From an uncultured Candidatus Saccharibacteria bacterium (lineage in GTDB: Bacteria; Patescibacteriota; Minisyncoccia; Phycocordibacterales; DATDWN01): a DNA stretch of 56,298 bases. The position numbers were made by a program, and so were the translations under genes. Numbering within the stretch: position 1 is the stretch's first letter; each line of letters opens with the position of its first letter. The stretch lies in NCBI GenBank assembly GCA_964428435.1, contig CAYRYA010000002.1, forward strand, positions 43,687 to 99,984, written 5' to 3'. Positions 37,288 through 54,936 of the stretch are shown one piece after another. The notes beneath the pieces were generated by a model that was given only the letters and a program-made list of their open reading frames with translations, did not search any database and had not been told where the DNA came from.

Positions 37288-38037
37288 ATGTCTTTTACAG
37301 AAGCGAAACTTATTATATTTGATTTAGACTCAACGCTTGCAGAGAGTAAATCAACACTTACGCATTCAATGGTTGAGATATTAGAGCGGTTAATGAGTAT
37401 TAAAAAAGTAGCAATTGTTTCTGGAGGTAATTTTCCTCAATTCGAAAAACAAGTTCTCACTCCGTTCACTCATCATGAGTGTTTTCGAAATCTGTATTTG
37501 ATGCCAACTTCAGGTACACGTCTGTATGTGTACGAAAATAATATGTGGACATGTGTATTTTCAAGAGATCTCACTCCCGAAGAAAAACAAAAAATTACAA
37601 ATGCTTTTTCTACTGTGCTCAATCATGTGCCTATTGTTTTTCCTGCAGAAATGTATGGAGAGCGCCTTGAAGACCGAGGGTCACAAATGAGCTTTTCTGC
37701 TCTTGGGCAAAATGCACCTGTTTCTGTAAAGGCGTTGTGGGACTCCGATCACAAAAAACGGGAAGAAATAGTACGAGAGCTCAAGAAAATAATTCCCGAA
37801 TTTAATATTCAAATCGGAGGTATGACTACTATCGATGTAACTGCACTGGGTGCCAACAAAGCAACTGCTATTGATCGATTGCAAGAGTATTTAAAATTAA
37901 CCGATGAAGAGGTGATTTTCGTAGGAGACGCTTTGTTTCCTGGAGGGAATGATTATCCTGCGATTTCTACAGGAGTGGAGTGTATCAAAGTCCAAAATCC
38001 CGCTCATACTGAAAAACTCATACAATCTTGGTTTTAA
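37288..38037 (+). CDS. HAD-IIB hydrolase (phosphomannomutase/sugar-phosphatase-like)
   Basis: IIFDLDSTLA (DxD), VAIVSGGN and VGDALFPGGNDY. Confidence 0.75.
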   Translation: MSFTEAKLIIFDLDSTLAESKSTLTHSMVEILERLMSIKKVAIVSGGNFPQFEKQVLTPFTHHECFRNLYLMPTSGTRLYVYENNMWTCVFSRDLTPEEKQKITNAFSTVLNHVPIVFPAEMYGERLEDRGSQMSFSALGQNAPVSVKALWDSDHKKREEIVRELKKIIPEFNIQIGGMTTIDVTALGANKATAIDRLQEYLKLTDEEVIFVGDALFPGGNDYPAISTGVECIKVQNPAHTEKLIQSWF

Positions 38038-38062
38038 CCCATCTCTGTGGTATATTTTTTGT

Positions 38063-39409
38063 ATGAATCGAACATATATTGGGGAACTAAGCTCACATGT
38101 AGGTGAGACCGTATTAATCAAAGGGTGGGTAGCTGTACGTCGAGATCAGGGAAAGATGGTCTTTATGGACTTTCGTGATATGTCAGGAGTAGTGCAGTGT
38201 GTCGTATTACCAAACCATATTGAAGCAATTAGTGCTATAAAAGATGTGCGCCTCGAATGGGCACTCAGTATTACTGGTATTGTAAACAAACGTCCAGAGA
38301 AAAATGTAAAAACAGGAGTACTTAATGGAAATGTTGAGCTCGAGGTTACTGGGCTTGAAATTTTAGCAGAAGCTGCACCACTTCCGTTTGATATGTCTGT
38401 TGATGGGTATAACCTTGATCTTACGACAGAACTTGATAATAGGGCACTTGTGCTACGTCAGCCAAAAATACAAGCTATCTTCAAAGTACAAGAAACAGTT
38501 ATTGATTCATTTAGGGAGTTCATGAAGCAGAATAAGTTTTTTGAATTTCAAGCTCCTGCCATAACTCCTGCAACAGCAGAAGGAGGGGCGGAGGTTTTTC
38601 AAGTTGATTATTTTGATAAAAAAGCATACCTCTCTCAGTCGCCACAGTTGTATAAGCAGATTGTAATGTCAGCATTTGAACGATGTTTTTCTGTAAACAA
38701 AGTGTTCCGTGCAGAACCTTCATCAACAACAAGACATCTTACTGAAATTGTTTCCTTGGACGCGGAAATGGCTTTTATTGATTCGTGGAAAGATGTGCGA
38801 GATATGGCAGAAGAAACAGTGCGTTTTATCTTGAAACAAATTGAGCTCAAAAATTCTGAACATATCAAGACTCTTGGAGCAACTCTTCCTGTTATGATTG
38901 AAAAAACACCAACACTTTCTCTTTCAGAAGTTCAGGAGAAAATATTTCAGAAATTTGGTCGTGATGTGAGAGGGGAGAAAGATACAAATCCACAAGATGA
39001 AAGAGAGATATGTGAAATCATAAAAGAAGAAACTGGTTCTGATTTTGTCTTTATTTATGGATATCCAACAAGAAAGAAACCTTTTTATGTTTATCCAAAC
39101 CCTGAAAATCCTGAATTCAATGAGGGTATGGACCTAATTTGTCGAGGGGTTGAATGGCTTTCAGGCGGTCGACGTATTAATAACTACGAGCAGCTCATGA
39201 AGCATGTCGAGCTGTGGAATATGGATCCAGAGAAAATAAAAATGTTTCTTCAGGCGTTCAAGTATGGAGTGCCTCCTGAAGGTGGTTTTGCTTTTGGTGC
39301 GGAACGCATTACAATGCAAATTCTAGGTCTTAAAAATGTTCGTGAAGCTTCAATGTTTCCACGTGATATGAATAGAATAGATGAAAAATTAAGTGCGGAT
39401 GGATTTTAA
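38063..39409 (+). CDS. aspS: Aspartate--tRNA ligase, short archaeal/eukaryal type
   Basis: 448 aa from Met39 of the ORF-track entry. It has an OB-fold N-terminus (GWVAVRRDQGKMVFMDFRD), motif 2 FRAEPSSTTRHLTE and motif 3 GFAFGAERI. Confidence 0.9.
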   Translation: MNRTYIGELSSHVGETVLIKGWVAVRRDQGKMVFMDFRDMSGVVQCVVLPNHIEAISAIKDVRLEWALSITGIVNKRPEKNVKTGVLNGNVELEVTGLEILAEAAPLPFDMSVDGYNLDLTTELDNRALVLRQPKIQAIFKVQETVIDSFREFMKQNKFFEFQAPAITPATAEGGAEVFQVDYFDKKAYLSQSPQLYKQIVMSAFERCFSVNKVFRAEPSSTTRHLTEIVSLDAEMAFIDSWKDVRDMAEETVRFILKQIELKNSEHIKTLGATLPVMIEKTPTLSLSEVQEKIFQKFGRDVRGEKDTNPQDEREICEIIKEETGSDFVFIYGYPTRKKPFYVYPNPENPEFNEGMDLICRGVEWLSGGRRINNYEQLMKHVELWNMDPEKIKMFLQAFKYGVPPEGGFAFGAERITMQILGLKNVREASMFPRDMNRIDEKLSADGF

Positions 39410-39538
39410 CTGTGATCTTATTTGCTAAAACAGGTGAGGGAAGAGATCCGATGATGCAGTCTCCGGCAGAAATCTCTCCAGAGCAACTCCTTGAACTCAA
39501 CATTTCACTGATGCAAAAGAAAAAAATATAAGATTGTA

Positions 39539-39567
39539 AAAACTACAGGGTGCTCTCTGTAGTTTTT
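39539..39567 (+). terminator. Intrinsic terminator
   Basis: A 10-bp stem (aaaactacag / ctgtagtttt) with an 8-nt loop, followed by a T-run. Confidence 0.6.
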
Positions 39568-39573
39568 ATATAT

Positions 39574-39604
39574 ACAAAATGCCGGTGACCAAAAGGTCAC
39601 CGGC
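39574..39604 (-). terminator. Intrinsic terminator of the minus-strand orphan gene
   Basis: A 10-bp GC-rich stem (gccggtgacc / ggtcaccggc) with loop aaaa. On the minus strand, cattttg follows it. Confidence 0.7.
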
Positions 39605-39614
39605 TCTTCATTTA

Positions 39615-40532
39615 CTACAGGTAGCGTTTAACTTCATCATCTTTGGACCACCACTCCTGTGGTGGCCCAAAGGGCATGTTTCTTTGATCAGGTTGTTCTG
39701 GCAGATCGATAATCTGCCTTCGAAAAACCTCCCTCGCCTCCCAAATTCCCATCACGACATATATCGTCGTGTGTGGGCCGTAAGGAGCCCGACCGTCTTT
39801 TGACTGGACGCACAGTACTACACATTTTCTTCCGTGACTATCCTGGATTTCCTTCTCCAGGAATGCCGTGTAGTCCGGGGCAAAATTGCCCACGACTGTC
39901 ACAGCTAGGTTTCCACCAAAATACTCGGTCGATTTCTGACACGGTTTTCTTTTCAATTGTGGCAGTTTGCGTCCGGTGTGAGACATAAGTATTGCATCAC
40001 ACAGGTTGTAAAACAACGACACTGCTTTTGGATCATCGATGGTGTAGCCATCGATGATCACACACTGCTTCTCCCCAGTCAGCTTAATATCCCAAGGTAC
40101 CCCTTTCGGGATACTAAAGATTAGTGCAGGGGAACCATCGTACCTCTTCCCTACACTAAGGTATTTGCTGAAATGCTCCACCGCCGCAAGTGTTTCTTCG
40201 GGATACGGCGGTATTGCTACCGCAAACTCGTCGTTATTTTGGTATCGTTGTCGTAATAGTTCCTTGTCTTTCTCGTGGTAAGACAAATCATAGGAGCTTC
40301 TCTCCTCTTTATCCGCTTTCTCAATTTCAAGAAATTGGATGATTTCTCCTTCGGTGACATCAGCTTTATACTTCCGGCCGAAGTCCCACGTCTTTTGCTT
40401 ATTTGTTATTTTCTTTGCCAAAGGGTACCCCTCGGCATAGCCCCTAGTACCGTTCAGCTCAAACGTTCTGCCGTCGGCACATTCTCCGGCCATCCCGGAG
40501 TTACTGCTATAAATACAAAATTTCACAAGCAT
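39615..40532 (-). CDS. Hypothetical protein (305 aa), orphan, visibly higher GC
   Basis: The start is trimmed to Met17, which is preceded by the SD AAGGAGGGG (MLVKFCIYSS...). No recognisable motif. Confidence 0.7.
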   Translation of the reverse strand: MLVKFCIYSSNSGMAGECADGRTFELNGTRGYAEGYPLAKKITNKQKTWDFGRKYKADVTEGEIIQFLEIEKADKEERSSYDLSYHEKDKELLRQRYQNNDEFAVAIPPYPEETLAAVEHFSKYLSVGKRYDGSPALIFSIPKGVPWDIKLTGEKQCVIIDGYTIDDPKAVSLFYNLCDAILMSHTGRKLPQLKRKPCQKSTEYFGGNLAVTVVGNFAPDYTAFLEKEIQDSHGRKCVVLCVQSKDGRAPYGPHTTIYVVMGIWEAREVFRRQIIDLPEQPDQRNMPFGPPQEWWSKDDEVKRYL

Positions 40533-40662
40533 TTTCCCCTCCTTAAGGGTTTTTACTACACATACGTGTGCCTGCCACAAAGTGGTTCAGGTGTATGTGT
40601 AGTTACTGCATTTTTCAGACCCCTTCGCATCGGGGAAAATGTCTTACCAAAGGTATTTCTAC

Positions 40663-40720
40663 CATGGAAGACGATGTGTGTAGATAGGGAAGTATATACC
40701 TCCACACATCGTCTTCCATG
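40663..40720 (-). promoter_or_regulatory. Perfect 18-bp inverted repeat inside the 5' leader of the orphan gene
   Basis: catggaagacgatgtgtg (40663-40680) and cacacatcgtcttccatg (40703-40720), with a 22-nt loop. Confidence 0.7.
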
Positions 40721-40750
40721 AACGGGTATATCAATGAACTGTATGGTTAT

Positions 40751-40816
40751 ATTATATACCATATACATATATTTGTCAAGTAGTTAGTTGACAAATATAT
40801 ACATATTATTTACTAT
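40751..40816. promoter_or_regulatory. Divergent near-consensus promoters embedded in a 13-bp-arm palindrome
   Basis: Minus strand: TTGACA (40779-40774), 17 nt, TATAAT (40756-40751). Plus strand: TTGACA (40788-40793), 17 nt, TACTAT (40811-40816). The palindrome is atatatttgtcaa / ttgacaaatatat (40767-40800). Confidence 0.6.
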
Positions 40817-40956
40817 AAAAAAGTAATGGAAAATTGTGCAACACAGCTGAATATGCGAAAAACCCACCGAGATACATCAATCTTCGGGTATTTTACCTAT
40901 ATTTCTGTGTTGCCACGGCTCCTGTAGCTGACTATACAATCTTTAATCTCCTAAAG

Positions 40957-40990
40957 AATCCGTGGCTTTACAGAAGCTACGGATTTTTTG
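40957..40990 (+). terminator. Intrinsic terminator / attenuator upstream of the GNAT gene
   Basis: Stem aatccgtggc / gctacggatt, followed by T6. It lies 30 nt upstream of the 41022 ATG. Confidence 0.65.
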
Positions 40991-41021
40991 TAAAGCATGT
41001 TGTTCTTTCAAAGGAGAAGAA

Positions 41022-41618
41022 ATGTCCAACACTATCGAAGAAAAAGAACCTGTTGTGTTTTTGATGGGTAAACGCATTTACATGCGCCCCGTTGAACTCG
41101 CTGACGCCCCTGTTTTGCAGCGGTATGCAAATGACCCTGGGGTAAGACGAATGGTTAGTAACCAGTTTCCACACTCTTTGATTTCTGAAGAAGAGTGGAT
41201 CAAAAAGTTATCGAAGGATAGTACGAAAGAAGTTGTTCTCGGTATTGTACTCAAGGATACTGATCAGGTGATCGGTGTCATGGGTTTACATCACATCAAT
41301 TGGAAAGATCGTACCGCTACTACCGGCGCAATTATCGGAAAAGAAGAGTGGCGAGGAAAAGGGTACGGTACTGAAGCAAAGATGCTTTTTCTTAACCATG
41401 CGTTCAACGAACTGAACTTACGAAAAATTTGTTCAGTTGCTCTTGAATTTAATCAGTTGAGTTTAGGTTTCAATGCTAAATGTGGGTACAAAGAAGAAGG
41501 TCGCCAAAAAAAGCATGTGTTTGTAAATGGTGACTATGTCGACGTAGTTCTCACTGCAGTGTTTCGAGAAGATTTTCTTCCTTTATGGAAAGTATACAAA
41601 GAAAAGTATCCTTCCTAG
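41022..41618 (+). CDS. GNAT N-acetyltransferase (RimJ/RimL-like)
   Basis: 198 aa from the Met preceded by the SD aaaGGAGaag. It has LRPVELADAP..., GKGYGTEA and the NxxSxxxxxKxGY-like block NQLSLGFNAKCGY. Confidence 0.8.
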   Translation: MSNTIEEKEPVVFLMGKRIYMRPVELADAPVLQRYANDPGVRRMVSNQFPHSLISEEEWIKKLSKDSTKEVVLGIVLKDTDQVIGVMGLHHINWKDRTATTGAIIGKEEWRGKGYGTEAKMLFLNHAFNELNLRKICSVALEFNQLSLGFNAKCGYKEEGRQKKHVFVNGDYVDVVLTAVFREDFLPLWKVYKEKYPS

Positions 41619-41621
41619 AAC

Positions 41622-41657
41622 AATCGTCCAAGGACTCCCCTTGGACGATTATTTTTT
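41622..41657 (+). terminator. Intrinsic terminator built on the TCCAAGGACTCCCCTTGGA palindromic repeat
   Basis: A 12-bp stem (aatcgtccaagg / ccttggacgatt) with loop actcc, followed by T6. The same 19-mer recurs at 54883-54901 and inverted at 54917-54935. Confidence 0.75.
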
Positions 41658-41670
41658 AACATCGTGGCAC

Positions 41671-41764
41671 AAAAAAAGGAGGATCACGCAACAACACCAG
41701 CATTAGGTTGTTGAGATATCCTCCAAAAGCAAGAGTGTCAGTACAAGAGACTGTAATGTCTTCT
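41671..41764 (-). ncRNA. Candidate small RNA (~94 nt)
   Basis: The minus-strand promoter is TTGAGC (41799-41794), 17 nt, TATAGT (41776-41771). The minus-strand terminator is ggaggat..caacaac / gttgttg..atcctcc (41678-41724) followed by T7. Confidence 0.3.
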
Positions 41765-41856
41765 TTATATACTATATACGCTACAGTGCATGTGCTCAAG
41801 CGCATCTGGGGACAGTCGTTATAGAGTGTCTCGGTGTTTTACGGTATGATACATGA

Positions 41857-42588
41857 GTGGATACAATCGATTATAATGTCAAAACAGATGTGTTCGAAGG
41901 ACCGCTCGATGTCCTGCTATCAATGATTGAAAAAAGAAAACTTTCAATTAGTGATATTTCTCTTGCAAAAGTGGCGGATGATTATGTTGAATATGTACGC
42001 AGTCAAACAGATTTTCCTCTTTCAGATTCGGCTTCATTTATCTTGATTGCATCAACATTGGTACTCATTAAGTCAAAGTCTCTTCTCCCAACCCTTTCAC
42101 TTTCGGAAGAAGAAGAAAAAAATATTGATGATTTGGAAACACGACTCACACTTCATCAGTACTATAAACATAAGGCTGCTTTACTTAAGCGTATGTTTGG
42201 GGCGAGTATTCTTTTTTCACAGGTTCCTAAAAAACAAACCACAATAGTGTTTACACCAGATAAAAAAACAAACCTTGCTTCACTGAAAGAGGTGATTGTG
42301 AATGTTATCTTGAACATGCCTCAACCTAAAGTTGTGGCACATACCACAGTGCGTAAAGTTATGAGTTTAGAGGAAGCGATCGTGAGTTTAACAGACCGTA
42401 TTGGTCGTCATCTCAAACTCAATTTTAAAGAATTTGCGGGTGTGGGAAAACAAGAAAAAGTTGCGGTAGTGGTGCATTTTTTGGCAATGCTCGAATTGGT
42501 TAAACAAGGAGTAATACAGGTGCATCAAGAACGACCTTTTCATGATATCCAAATGGAAAGTAGTATTGTGGGGGTTCCTCGTTACTAA
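41857..42588 (+). CDS. scpA: Segregation and condensation protein A
   Basis: GTG start. FEGPLDVLLSMIEKRKLSISDISLAKVADDY is the ScpA signature. Confidence 0.9.
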   Translation: MDTIDYNVKTDVFEGPLDVLLSMIEKRKLSISDISLAKVADDYVEYVRSQTDFPLSDSASFILIASTLVLIKSKSLLPTLSLSEEEEKNIDDLETRLTLHQYYKHKAALLKRMFGASILFSQVPKKQTTIVFTPDKKTNLASLKEVIVNVILNMPQPKVVAHTTVRKVMSLEEAIVSLTDRIGRHLKLNFKEFAGVGKQEKVAVVVHFLAMLELVKQGVIQVHQERPFHDIQMESSIVGVPRY

Positions 42589-42615
42589 GCTTTTATATGT
42601 AACATTCATCCTATT

Positions 42616-43155
42616 ATGATTGAACAAAAAATAGAATCAATATTGTTTTATAAAAATGAACCTGTAGCACTAAAAGATTTGGTGGAGTGGCTTGAAGTGT
42701 CTGAGGAAGAAGTACGTCGAGGGCTCGATATGCTTAGACAAAATTTGTCACACAGAGGTATCCTTTTATTAGAGAATAAGGAAGAATACTCACTAGTTAC
42801 TCATCCAGACAGTGCGCCACTTATTGAAAAAATAGTAAAAGATGAATTATCTAAAGATTTGTCACAAGCATCTCTCGAAACATTGGCGATAGTGGCATAT
42901 AAAAGTCCAGTCACTCGAAAAGAAATAGAGTATATTCGAGGAGTAAATGCGGGATTTTCAATTAGAAATCTCTTGTTGCGTGGGCTGATAGAAAAAATTC
43001 CAAGTAAGCTTGATGAGAGGATTTACCTGTACACACCCACCTCCGATGCGTTAAAATACTTAGGTATCACATCTGTACAAGAATTACCTGAATACGAGGC
43101 GGTCAAAAAAGAAATTGATCACCGCAGTAGTGCACTTCAACAAACTGAAGAATAA
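42616..43155 (+). CDS. scpB: Segregation and condensation protein B
   Basis: IESILFYKNEPVALKDL and LETLAIVAYKSPVTRKEIEYIRGVN (a tandem winged helix). Confidence 0.9.
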   Translation: MIEQKIESILFYKNEPVALKDLVEWLEVSEEEVRRGLDMLRQNLSHRGILLLENKEEYSLVTHPDSAPLIEKIVKDELSKDLSQASLETLAIVAYKSPVTRKEIEYIRGVNAGFSIRNLLLRGLIEKIPSKLDERIYLYTPTSDALKYLGITSVQELPEYEAVKKEIDHRSSALQQTEE

Positions 43156-48500: not shown

Positions 48501-49631
48501 ATGAAAATTTTATTTACCGGTGGAGGTTCAGGTGGTCATTTTTATCCAATCATTGCGATTGTTGAAGAAATAAACCAACTGGCAAAAGAAAATAAACTTA
48601 TTGGTCTTGAGCTTTTTTATATGTCACACTCTCCGTACAACGAAGGGTTGTTGTTTGAACATGGTGTAACATTTAAGAAAAATACCGCAGGTAAACTACG
48701 GGTGTATTTTTCACTGATGAATATTGTTGATATGTTTAAGACAGCGTGGGGAGTGATTGTGTCACTATGGGCAATCTTTACTATCTACCCTGATGTTATT
48801 TTTGGTAAAGGTGGATACGCAAGTTTTCCGGCGCTTCTTGCAGGTAAACTGCTGAAGATTCCTGTAGTGATCCATGAATCAGACAGTGTTCCTGGTAGAG
48901 TAAATGCATGGGCGGGGAAGTTTGCTGCACGTATAGCGATTTCGTATCCGGAATCAGCAACATATTTCCCACAAGGAAAGACTGCCTATACAGGCAATCC
49001 TATTCGCAAAGATATTATGCATGCGCTCTCATCGGGTGCACATGAATATCTCGGACTTGATCCACATATTCCTACGATTCTCGTTATCGGTGGGTCTCAA
49101 GGTGCACAGCTTATCAATGATACTGTAGTGGATGCATTGCCACGGTTGGTTCAGAAATATCAGATTATTCACCAGACAGGAAAAAATAATTTTAATATGG
49201 TCAAAAACACAGCGGATGTGGTGTTGCTCACCAATGAATTTAAAAAACGATATCAGCCGTTTGATTATCTCAACAATCTTGCATTACGAATGTCTGCTGG
49301 AGCAGCGAGTTTGGTTATATCTCGAGCAGGGTCGTCGTTGTTCGAGATCGCTTCCTGGGAAAAACCTGCTATTGTTATTCCAATTACCAAATCAAACGGA
49401 AACCATCAGCGGATGAATGCATACGCATATGCACGCACAGGAGCTGCTGTTGTCCTTGAAGAAGCTAATCTTTCTGGTAATATCTTGAGTGCAGAGGTTG
49501 ATCGGCTACTTGATAACCCTTCAGTACTCGCGCAGATGTCTGAAGCAACCAAAACTTCACAGCATCCAGATGCGGCACGAAAGATTGCAACAGAAATTTT
49601 AAATATTGCACTCGATCACCAGAAGTCATAG
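48501..49631 (+). CDS. murG: UDP-GlcNAc--undecaprenyl-PP-MurNAc-pentapeptide GlcNAc transferase
   Basis: GGGSGGHFYP, HESDSVPG and RAGSSLFE. Confidence 0.9.
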   Translation: MKILFTGGGSGGHFYPIIAIVEEINQLAKENKLIGLELFYMSHSPYNEGLLFEHGVTFKKNTAGKLRVYFSLMNIVDMFKTAWGVIVSLWAIFTIYPDVIFGKGGYASFPALLAGKLLKIPVVIHESDSVPGRVNAWAGKFAARIAISYPESATYFPQGKTAYTGNPIRKDIMHALSSGAHEYLGLDPHIPTILVIGGSQGAQLINDTVVDALPRLVQKYQIIHQTGKNNFNMVKNTADVVLLTNEFKKRYQPFDYLNNLALRMSAGAASLVISRAGSSLFEIASWEKPAIVIPITKSNGNHQRMNAYAYARTGAAVVLEEANLSGNILSAEVDRLLDNPSVLAQMSEATKTSQHPDAARKIATEILNIALDHQKS

Positions 49632-49697
49632 TCCATCAAGTTCGTAAAGTCCGTAAAGTCGAAAGTAAATGCATTTGAAGCGGACTTGATGGACTTT
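49630..49697. repeat. GGACTTGATGGACTTT palindromic repeat (copy 1)
   Basis: agtccatcaagttcg (49630-49644) is inverted relative to cggacttgatggact (49681-49695). The 17-mer cggacttgatggacttt is identical at 53521-53537. Confidence 0.75.
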
Positions 49698-49739
49698 ATA
49701 GACTTTAAGGACTTTTGACTCAACAATCACTTAATTATC

Positions 49740-53572: not shown

Positions 53573-54859
53573 ATGCGTATTCGTCCCTCGTACAGTCTTT
53601 TTCTGTTAGTGGTTTATTTCCTCTCCGGATTCTTTTTCATCTCACCTGTATTTGCTCAAAACAAAGCAGAAGAGCTTCAAAGTAAAATTGAAGAACGTAA
53701 TAACCAAATCAAGGCACTTGAAGCAGAGATAAATCTATACAATAAAGAAGTAGAGCGAGTGGGAAAGGAAGCAAAAACACTCCAGAATACTATTAAAACC
53801 CTCGATGTTACTCAAAAAAAAGTAACTACGGATTTGACGTTGACCGAACGAAAGATAAGTAAAAGTAGTCTTACGATCGATGAGCTTGGAAGTACTATTA
53901 AAACGACAGCAGAACAGATCGATGCAAATACAGAAGTGATTCGCAACCTTATTAATGAGATATACCAAACAGAAATAGAAACTCCTGTTGAAAATTTTCT
54001 ACAGTATAAAACGTTTACGGATATGTGGAATGGTTTGGATTCGATCAAGCAAGTACAAAAGCAAATCAAAATAAAAACAGAAGATCTGGTTGACCTTAAA
54101 GGTAATCTTGCTGACAAAAAAACTAAAACAGAAGCAGAGAAAGAACGTCTTAAGTTGTTACAAGATAATCTTGAAGATCAAAAAAAAATAGTTGAATACA
54201 ACAAACAAGAAAAAGCAAAAATACTCGCTCAGACAAAAAACACTGAGGCTGCATACAAAACACTGCTCAAACAAAAAGAAGAACAAAAAGCTGCATTTGA
54301 AAAGGAGTTGTTTGCGTATGAGTCACAGTTGCAACTTGAAGTTGATCCGACACGTCTACCGGGTTCTCGACCAGGGATACTTTCATGGCCACTTGATAAG
54401 GTAATTATCACTCAACGATTTGGTAAAACATCAGCATCAAAACGTCTCTATGTGTCTGGTTCACACAATGGTGTAGATTTCGGTGCATCAGTAGGTACTC
54501 CAGTTAAAAGTGTTCTTGAGGGTGTGGTGATAGGAACAGGGAACACTGACTTGGTAAAAGGGTGTTATTCATTTGGAAAATGGGTAATGGTCAAACATCC
54601 AAATGGACTTTCGTCCGTGTATGGGCATCTTTCGATAATTAAAGCAGTTGAGGGGCAGAGTGTGGCAACAGGTGATGTGATTGGTTATAGCGGAAATACA
54701 GGTTACTCTACTGGACCACACCTTCATCTTGGCGTGTATGCGTCTCAGGGTGTGCGTATTGAAAATCATGTGAATAGTCGTGCATGTAAAAGTGCAAAAA
54801 TGCCTATCGCTGATATCAAAGCATATCTCGATCCATTCGAATATCTCCCTGAGCTATAA
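53573..54859 (+). CDS. M23/LytM peptidoglycan endopeptidase with N-terminal coiled coil (EnvC-like)
   Basis: 428 aa from Met74 of the ORF-track entry. It has a signal/TM helix, a long Lys/Glu/Gln coiled coil and a C-terminal LytM domain (SHNGVDFG, GPHLHLGVY). Confidence 0.85.
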   Translation: MRIRPSYSLFLLVVYFLSGFFFISPVFAQNKAEELQSKIEERNNQIKALEAEINLYNKEVERVGKEAKTLQNTIKTLDVTQKKVTTDLTLTERKISKSSLTIDELGSTIKTTAEQIDANTEVIRNLINEIYQTEIETPVENFLQYKTFTDMWNGLDSIKQVQKQIKIKTEDLVDLKGNLADKKTKTEAEKERLKLLQDNLEDQKKIVEYNKQEKAKILAQTKNTEAAYKTLLKQKEEQKAAFEKELFAYESQLQLEVDPTRLPGSRPGILSWPLDKVIITQRFGKTSASKRLYVSGSHNGVDFGASVGTPVKSVLEGVVIGTGNTDLVKGCYSFGKWVMVKHPNGLSSVYGHLSIIKAVEGQSVATGDVIGYSGNTGYSTGPHLHLGVYASQGVRIENHVNSRACKSAKMPIADIKAYLDPFEYLPEL

Positions 54860-54881: not shown

Positions 54882-54936
54882 ATCCAAGGACTCCCCTTGG
54901 ATGGGGAAGCGGTTCATCCAAGGGGAGTCCTTGGAT
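54882..54936. repeat. Two inverted copies of the TCCAAGGACTCCCCTTGGA palindromic repeat (probable terminator)
   Basis: atccaaggactccccttggat (54882-54902) and its exact reverse complement atccaaggggagtccttggat (54916-54936). Each copy is also a hairpin on its own. Confidence 0.8.

Follow-up and report, generated by a model that had tools for sequence, protein, structure and literature searches.

How does an ultra-small bacterium express a single GC-rich gene of no recognisable family that stands between an acetyltransferase gene and a tRNA synthetase gene, and what part could its long structured leader play? The question is raised by a locus in a stretch of 56,298 nucleotides (nt) from an uncultured Candidatus Saccharibacteria bacterium, the whole of which is called the window here (G000:C2:43687-99984, G000 being the source genome). 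G000 is an ultra-small genome of the Patescibacteria, or candidate phyla radiation (CPR), with an assembly of 738 kb in 27 contigs that is 97% complete, and the sequencing runs containing the stretch are wastewater and sludge metagenomes. The locus is a one-gene module (about 39540-40788) in which all elements, from promoter to terminator, lie on the minus strand. Its cargo is an orphan protein of 305 amino acids (aa), P0001. The flanking genes encode a GNAT acetyltransferase and a class II Asp/Lys/Asn-type tRNA synthetase (family profile match). The relatives compared were G004 of the same genus, the sister species G005 and another species, G003, together with the metagenome runs X3 and X4; L-numbers denote individual loci in G000 or in other genomes.

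The module combines defined sequence elements, a conserved and covarying leader, recurrence of the leader type before unrelated GC-rich cargo, presence/absence polymorphism and cargo swaps. We suggest that it is headed by a Nus-factor leader of the nut/rrn type, placed on an exchangeable and insertable cargo and resembling the nutL-N arrangement of phage lambda. On the elements found, we hold this explanation to be somewhat better than an even bet.

Promoter and boxA-like element

A sigma-70 type promoter, TTGACA (40779-40774) and TATAAT (40756-40751) with a spacer of 17 nt, was found at 40751-40779 on the minus strand, where the original prediction had placed it. It scores 12/12 against the consensus and is the sole site to do so among the six promoter-like sites in 39300-41100 (shuffle mean 3.8). 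The transcript is predicted to start at about 40744, approximately 7 nt past the -10 hexamer, which bears out the claimed leader of about 212 nt upstream of the ATG at 40532.

The original prediction overlooked a boxA-like 12-mer, AGTTCATTGATA, which begins 10 nt past the -10 hexamer of this promoter (40729-40740, minus strand) and occupies about +5 to +16 of the predicted transcript. It is identical at 10 of 12 positions to the box AGTTCGTTGACA in the 16S leader of the same genome (G000 C13:592). Compared with the gamma-proteobacterial boxA consensus GYTCTTTAANA, as given in passages of PMC5725501, GTTCATTGATA agrees at 9 of 11 positions. C4 and T6, which the same passages describe as critical, with mutation abolishing function, are both kept.

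In six of the ten 16S leaders examined in the family (three by script, three by eye), AGTTC[G/A]TTGA[C/A]A was found past the promoter, and the family variants of the box read AGTTCGTTGACA, AGTTCATTGAAA or AGTTCATTGACA. The box follows the promoter and a small hairpin there, and usually another hairpin comes after it. The rRNA genes are fragmented in the G000 assembly. Its copy of AGTTCGTTGACA is found where contig C13 runs out, at the point at which the 16S gene, itself unassembled, would start; in the sister species G005 this leader stands ahead of the 16S gene. NusB (PF01029) is encoded in G000 (C3:33960-34349, 118 bits).

The 23S gene region (G000:C7:38300-39065) has a promoter-like site of its own, at which no box was found by the pattern used, and the roughly 39 kb upstream of it are not rRNA. 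In the G000 assembly the 16S and 23S genes are hence apparently unlinked.

Structure and conservation of the leader

Hairpin 1 starts 8 nt past the box and spans 40663-40720. As had been described, it is a stem of 18 perfect pairs (arms 40720-40703 and 40680-40663) with a 22-nt loop, and in a repeat search the arms grew to 24 nt at 92%. The window contains a single further perfect inverted repeat of similar length, at 54882-54936; it has 22 bp and an 11-nt loop, lies directly after a gene ending at 54859 and has no box before it. Farther along the leader, the claimed CCCC/GGGG hairpin, with the loop GATGCGAA, is present in the RNAalifold consensus, although it lies at 40635-40620 and not at 40634-40619, one nucleotide away. 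The third predicted stem, just upstream of the Shine-Dalgarno (SD)-like box, was likewise found in the sequence and in the folds. This hairpin 3 pairs ACACATAC with GTATGTGT at 40600-40558 (feature 40556-40602) and has inner CCTG/CAGG and CCAC/GTGG stems.

For the leader RNA the predicted folding energy is -81.1 kcal/mol (z = -7.43), a value that none of 200 shuffles reached. The antisense strand folds almost equally (z = -6.2), as is expected for hairpins. Between G000 and G004 the promoter and leader are 98.4% identical, compared with 93.3% for the orphan coding sequence (CDS; pS 0.143) and 97.1% for the GNAT CDS; the leader is evidently more constrained than the cargo CDS. A DNA search with the promoter and leader found the full leader in only three of the 63 family genomes, namely G000, G004 (97%) and G003 (73%). 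By blastn the exact leader is single-copy in G000, and a 31-nt pattern from hairpin 3 had no match in metagenome contigs.

In G003, the only diverged homologous locus, the hairpins are kept with compensatory changes. Four pairs of hairpin 1 differ on both sides between G000 and G003 with the pairing kept, which is a single independent comparison among three leader sequences, two of them nearly identical, and this limits how far the covariation can carry the case for a Nus-type leader. Several G-C or A-U pairs have become G.U on the sense strand, where the other strand would have C.A mismatches, and hairpin 1 of G004 has one further sense-strand wobble. These compensatory changes and sense-only wobbles favour a structure in the sense transcript, and they favour hairpin 1 acting as an RNA structure rather than as a DNA site; the recombination site suggested in the original prediction finds no support in them. 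Hairpin 3 is nearly invariant in G003 and G004, and therefore speaks neither for nor against covariation. It is plausible that hairpin 1 is an RNase III site, as a duplex of 18-24 bp would be a suitable substrate and RNase III is encoded in G000.

The leader also offers an alternative pairing, in which a riboswitch or RNA thermometer could be seen. Its C-tract (feature 40620-40641, minus strand) includes CAUUUUCCCC (40641-40632), which forms a perfect 10-bp helix with GGGGAAAAUG (40539-40530) in both the minimum free energy and the centroid fold of the single sequence. This long-range helix covers the end of the SD-like box and the AUG and competes with the local CCCC/GGGG hairpin of the consensus fold, so that ligand or temperature might gate the start codon according to whether the C-tract pairs there or with the local GGGG. 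The strong constraint on the leader (98.4% identity) would suit such a device. In G003, on the other hand, only 7 contiguous pairs of the long-range helix are left, with no compensatory change, no conserved junction resembling a ligand pocket is visible in the leader, and unrelated cargo genes share this leader, an arrangement that would be uncommon for a metabolite sensor. The riboswitch-like family envisaged in the original prediction was not recovered by an Rfam scan of the leader, in which no family came near its gathering score; the best matches, a pestivirus UTR at 33 bits against a gathering score of 90 and microRNA models, are all hairpin noise. We consider a riboswitch or thermometer improbable. 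Switch-like control by C-tract pairing is plausible from the fold models and is offered as a lead, not as a finding.

Exchange of the cargo gene

The module ends, as claimed, in an intrinsic terminator (39571-39604, minus strand) with a 10-bp stem (39604-39581; 8 of the 10 pairs are G-C), a 4-nt loop and the T-rich tail ATTTTGTATA. The whole unit varies between close relatives. Of 60 related genomes, a single one, G004, has an orthologue of the cargo (92% identity), which stands at the same place, and the module is absent from the sister species G005. At this empty site the homology ends at window position 40788 and resumes about 41 nt further on in the aspS-side flank, with a simple terminator instead of the module. 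Run X3 contains a G004-like version at about 95% identity.

Two further versions have other cargo in the same frame. G003 keeps the promoter and the leader up to the ATG (82% identity) and the 38-nt terminator, with an unrelated ORF (open reading frame) of 76 aa between them. A 2297-nt contig of run X4 covers 40533-41100 and 39420-39604, and joins 39604 to 40533 through 454 other letters; read from its sequence, this contig is evidently a third cargo in the same frame. The junctions in G003 and X4 indicate that the cargo was exchanged exactly between the start codon and the terminator. In G003 (L013 1845-2883) an additional ORF, acidic and 230 aa long, lies on the opposite strand from the 76-aa one, between the terminator and aspS. 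Neither Pfam nor PHROGs matches either of these two ORFs.

Phage morons and integron cassettes are single genes with their own promoter and terminator, variable presence in close relatives and interchangeable cargo. Unlike these, the module has no phage or integrase context that we could find, and its conserved frame is an RNA leader, not attC. The long inverted repeats might still be the DNA recombination sites of a gene-cassette system comparable to integron attC, which would explain the cargo exchange, the perfect 24-nt palindrome of the 3' frame and the absence of the whole unit from G005. The boundaries of exchange, however, lie at the ATG and the terminator and not at hairpin 1, whose wobbles fit a sense RNA. 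No recombinase was found by Pfam among the eight neighbouring ORFs scanned, and no target duplication is visible at the empty site in G005. Homologous recombination between the conserved frames explains the exchange without dedicated sites and, from the sequences, would be the simplest explanation. The reading as recombination sites is thus highly improbable in our view.

Recurrence in related genomes

The pattern TATAWT-N3-22-AGTTCWTTGATA gave 26 matches in 23 of the 401 sampled genomes of the order, compared with 4 for the reversed control, and a relaxed pattern gave 13 matches in 10 of the 63 family genomes, compared with 2. The recurrent order is promoter, boxA, about 8-12 nt, long hairpin and a GC-rich ORF of no known family. 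G000 itself has a second module (L036, C1:71263-70554, minus strand), which has the same promoter type and the box AGTTCTTTGATA. Past this box comes a hairpin of 13 bp whose sequence is unrelated; the leader measures about 215 nt, and AAGGAG and a 160-aa GC-rich membrane orphan follow.

Over 34 distinct box loci, the -35 hexamer was found by script in 24 and by eye in three more, at which the script had taken an upstream TATAWT. At 30 of these loci, a stem with 10 pairs or more begins no more than 25 nt from the box, and 21 combine the -35 hexamer and the stem with an ORF of at least 100 aa and a GC content of at least 0.45 that starts within 260 nt. Such an ORF is missing at L032, L033 and L053, and L088, L092 and L094 resemble rRNA-type leaders. 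No rRNA was found downstream in 20 loci, on whose leaders no Rfam family reaches its threshold. Folding of the box with the following 115 nt at 25 loci gave z = -4.4 on average. Across 16 sequences of the commonest leader class, both sides have changed in 17 of the 22 predicted pairs and the pairing is kept.

Two leader classes stand out among L031-L056 and L089-L097. In the commonest one, which matches no Rfam family, the box is accompanied by a TTGCGA-like word and by a CATAGC...GCTATG hairpin that encloses a further stem-loop, and a second class has a GAGACTAGTG-type hairpin and a conserved second hairpin. In another genome, a LOOT RNA (RF03000, 88 bits; L034 1238-1362, minus strand) lies just upstream of a box module and is divergent from it; being on the opposite strand, this sole Rfam match is no part of the leader.

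Among the cargo proteins at least ten groups, unrelated or weakly related to one another, can be told apart; none of these has a match in Pfam or PHROGs, and none of ten other cargo families is related to P0001 (hhalign probability at most 0.6%). The commonest group has 2153 homologues at E <= 0.001 over many CPR lineages, and the named ones are all hypothetical. Its structure model (pLDDT 76) gave weak, consistent matches to the C-type-lectin/FGE fold (best Z 5.7), including the variable proteins of diversity-generating retroelements, TvpA (Z 4.7) and Mtd (Z 3.4); this signal is informative on the typical cargo and not on P0001. A phage origin was considered and rejected, as PHROGs gave only a noise match for P0001 and none for ten other cargo or neighbouring proteins, and cargo family A is absent from viral contigs.

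An rrn-type box thus heads a recurrent leader before unrelated, strain-variable genes across a large order of ultra-small bacteria. It points to an undescribed way of expressing acquired genes in CPR bacteria.

Comparison with known boxA systems

boxA and the Nus factors are textbook regulators of rRNA and lambdoid phages, and few mRNA targets are known. The module resembles the lambda pL-nutL-N region in its strong promoter, boxA near the 5' end, short spacer and hairpin, and in a structured leader of about 200 nt with a long duplex ahead of the SD of the first gene. Passages of PMC5725501, citing Wilson (1997, 2002), place nutL about 200 nt upstream of N, describe the leader that separates the two as structured and RNase III-sensitive, and report that nutL represses N translation and that RNase III relieves this. 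Such control of translation from a distant nut site, modulated by RNase III, is proposed here by analogy.

In this proposal, the consensus promoter would start a transcript with an rRNA-operon-type boxA within its first 20 nt and a long hairpin 8 nt further on, followed by a structured leader able to hide the start codon, the AAGGAGG box, the cargo and the strong terminator. NusB-S10 would bind boxA on the nascent RNA and assemble an rrn/nut-like complex on RNA polymerase. This complex may tether the leader to the polymerase and guide its folding or set the level of translation, as lambda nutL does for N. The long duplex would be a likely site for RNase III, and cleavage of hairpin 1 would free the message from this regulation. 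What we infer from these elements is the binding of Nus factors, cleavage by RNase III and any consequence for expression.

The leaders of rRNA operons (boxB-boxA-boxC, bound by NusB, NusE, NusA and NusG as well as SuhB) are a second point of comparison. The box of the module is near-identical to that of the 16S leaders of the lineage, a hairpin follows it and NusB is encoded. However, no rRNA was found in an Rfam scan of 38000-43000 and the 305-aa CDS lies downstream, so that this is a leader of a protein-coding gene and not of an rRNA operon. The module also lacks the small hairpin found ahead of the box in the 16S leaders, and its -10 hexamer is TATAAT instead of their TATACT.

Control of mRNA by boxA is already known. 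Baniulyte et al. (2017, PMC5725501) reported, in the passages bearing on these cases, that a boxA in the 5' untranslated region (UTR) represses suhB of E. coli and a ParE-like toxin gene of Citrobacter koseri. These boxes stand ahead of coding genes, as here, one of them an accessory gene of the toxin type, and the control is exerted on translation and not on rRNA. They lie within 50 nt of the start codon and act with Rho, whereas the box of the module lies about 200 nt upstream with a long hairpin behind it, in a genome in which Rho was not found. In the open-access and bioRxiv literature, no description was found of this boxA leader class, or of the anti-SD peculiarity treated below, in Saccharibacteria, Patescibacteria or CPR bacteria. 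What is new is the recurrent leader of promoter, boxA and long hairpin on exchangeable GC-rich orphan cargo, in CPR bacteria in which Rho was not detected and with an SD-like box that has no anti-SD.

Several observations weigh against a Nus-type leader. The box departs from the published consensus at position 5 (A in place of T) and at position 8 (G in place of A). In the genome the relaxed 12-mer was found 5 times, compared with about 2 expected by chance on our own estimate; the sequence by itself is therefore weak evidence, and the case rests on placement and recurrence. Within 420 nt, no such box was found in four of the ten 16S leaders examined. Searches for Rho, with two models in G000 and over 7 genomes of the genus, found none, and there is no intrinsic terminator between the box and the cargo, which leaves antitermination with no visible target. 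With neither Rho nor a terminator in the leader, an anti-Rho role is unlikely, and the complex would probably not be countering Rho. The hairpin is 58 nt long (18-bp stem, 22-nt loop) in place of the 15-nt boxB of lambda. Its sequence also differs from that of the commonest leader class, and hairpin homology between them is therefore not established.

Further differences from lambda concern the setting. No N-like protein was recognised by Pfam or PHROGs, a single gene with a terminator takes the place of an operon to be read through, and the module is chromosomal with no phage context found, in a host in which Rho was not detected. By analogy, the module may work like a nut site, but it is not a member of the lambda-type nut family.

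A simpler explanation is a plain strong-expression cassette, in which the 12-mer is an initial-transcribed or operator-like site, or a site for another RNA-binding protein, and the hairpin stabilises or processes the message with no role for Nus factors. The box starts a few nucleotides from the predicted start site, where promoter-proximal elements lie, and the extended promoter is widespread before small GC-rich ORFs that have no box; blastn matched it in 21 of the 63 family genomes, mostly ahead of such ORFs. There is also no terminator to overcome, no Rho was found, and the duplex has the length of an RNase III substrate where RNase III is encoded. Yet the 12-mer is not palindromic, its orientation to the promoter is fixed (26 matches against 4 in the reversed control), and within the genome it is matched most closely by the box of the 16S leader. 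The start of hairpin 1, moreover, is about 25 nt away from the 5' end, a distance too great for protection of that end. A plain cassette is accordingly judged rather unlikely, though a reading to be taken seriously.

If Nus factors do act on this leader, their role would not be anti-Rho, and Rho-independent functions such as tethering, folding or control of translation could be tested on a one-gene unit. The module also flags fast-changing accessory genes in organisms whose host-interaction genes are almost all unknown, and it is a natural expression cassette for the emerging genetics of Patescibacteria.

Translation of the cargo

The SD-like box AAGGAGGGG (40536-40544, minus strand) has its GGAGG core 5 nt ahead of the ATG. 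GGAGG within -20 to -4 was found for 11 of 578 non-overlapping G000 ORFs, the orphan among them, where control windows gave 2 and 11. These 11 ORFs have a mean GC content at third codon positions (GC3) of 0.44, compared with 0.31 overall. In the module cargos, an AGGAG-type box lies 4-14 nt before an in-frame start in 12 of 19.

The 3' tail of the 16S rRNA reads GGA[T/A]TAATT... where CCTCC is expected, both in G000 (L057, G000:C6) and in 10 other distinct loci of the family (L074 and L079, which denote one place, were counted once). AAGGAGG would thus be unable to pair with the tail of its own 16S rRNA, as this tail has no CCUCC, and GGAGG precedes fewer than 2% of the genes. Words complementary to the actual tail, GAATT and similar, are not enriched upstream of G000 genes. 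An AAGGAGG box with no matching anti-SD would therefore be a puzzle for translation initiation.

One answer would be a dedicated, portable CPR expression platform for acquired GC-rich genes, made up of the promoter, an rRNA-mimicking boxA, a processing hairpin and AAGGAGG, in which anti-SD-independent initiation is coupled to a Nus-modified polymerase and the cargo is recombined between the frames. We put this forward tentatively, as a possible but rather doubtful extension of the Nus-factor leader. If true, it would imply a second route of translation initiation that is independent of the anti-SD.

The orphan protein

The 305-aa orphan gene (40532-39615, minus strand) was found as predicted, and so was its GC richness: GC is 0.44-0.49 across the CDS and 0.36-0.41 in the flanks. 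GC3 of the CDS is 0.51, at the 97th percentile of the 389 G000 ORFs of at least 200 aa (0.306 +/- 0.072), and GC1 and GC2 are ordinary. The ratio of nonsynonymous to synonymous change (dN/dS) against the G004 orthologue is 0.27, a sign of purifying selection on the reading frame. Among the runs containing the stretch, none is listed as RNA. Run X9, although entered as RNA-Seq, is flagged as probably DNA; its one 151-nt contig within the CDS (39822-39971) is unusable as evidence either way.

The protein has no recognisable motif, in agreement with the original prediction. Pfam, NCBIfam and PADLOC gave no match, and PHROGs gave one noise match (E = 0.29). A search of 5.8 billion proteins returned only P0001 itself, called from Met14 as 292 aa. 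The only full-length relative to emerge from an exhaustive HMMER search was P0003 (300 aa, 35% identity, E = 8.8e-33). Nothing but P0003 was added by the alignment-based search, and its 979-nt contig offers no gene context. Homologues were absent from metagenome contigs and viral contigs, and the one in genome contigs is a G004-type record. A PDB profile search gave a best E of 0.42. An AlphaFold2 model from a three-sequence alignment reached a pLDDT of 44.9, with no Foldseek match in the PDB at E <= 0.001 (TM <= 0.16), and the ESM Atlas gave no feature match (structure TM <= 0.28). No known protein family was thus found for the product, and the leader hairpins are kept in G003. No long hydrophobic stretch was seen by eye, and P0001 appears to be a cytoplasmic accessory protein.

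A von Willebrand A (VWA) domain was tried and rejected. The match (E = 7.8e-7, residues 112-170) came from five near-identical repeats of P0004, a eukaryote-like VWA protein; the VWA motif is not kept in P0003, and Pfam VWA has no match to P0001.

Neighbouring features

Ahead of the module, a divergent promoter of the GNAT gene, TTGACA-17-TACTAT (40788-40816, plus strand), was found in the promoter scan, and its -35 hexamer forms the left arm of an apparent palindrome. This 'palindrome' around the -35 hexamer is two back-to-back divergent promoters of the same consensus, which the original prediction overlooked. The GNAT-promoter arm is kept in G005, although the module is missing there.

The GNAT leader itself (window 40817-41020, plus strand, about 200 nt) is 99.4% identical to that of G004, better conserved than the GNAT coding region, and is kept in G003 and G005. 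It ends with a terminator-like hairpin (40965-40996) immediately before the start codon, and a weak preQ1-II match lies over it at 40928-41024 (24 bits against a gathering score of 47). The GNAT leader is a candidate attenuator or riboswitch. Elsewhere in the window, positions 49630-49713 hold an overlapping palindromic array of GACTT/AAGTC-type repeats.

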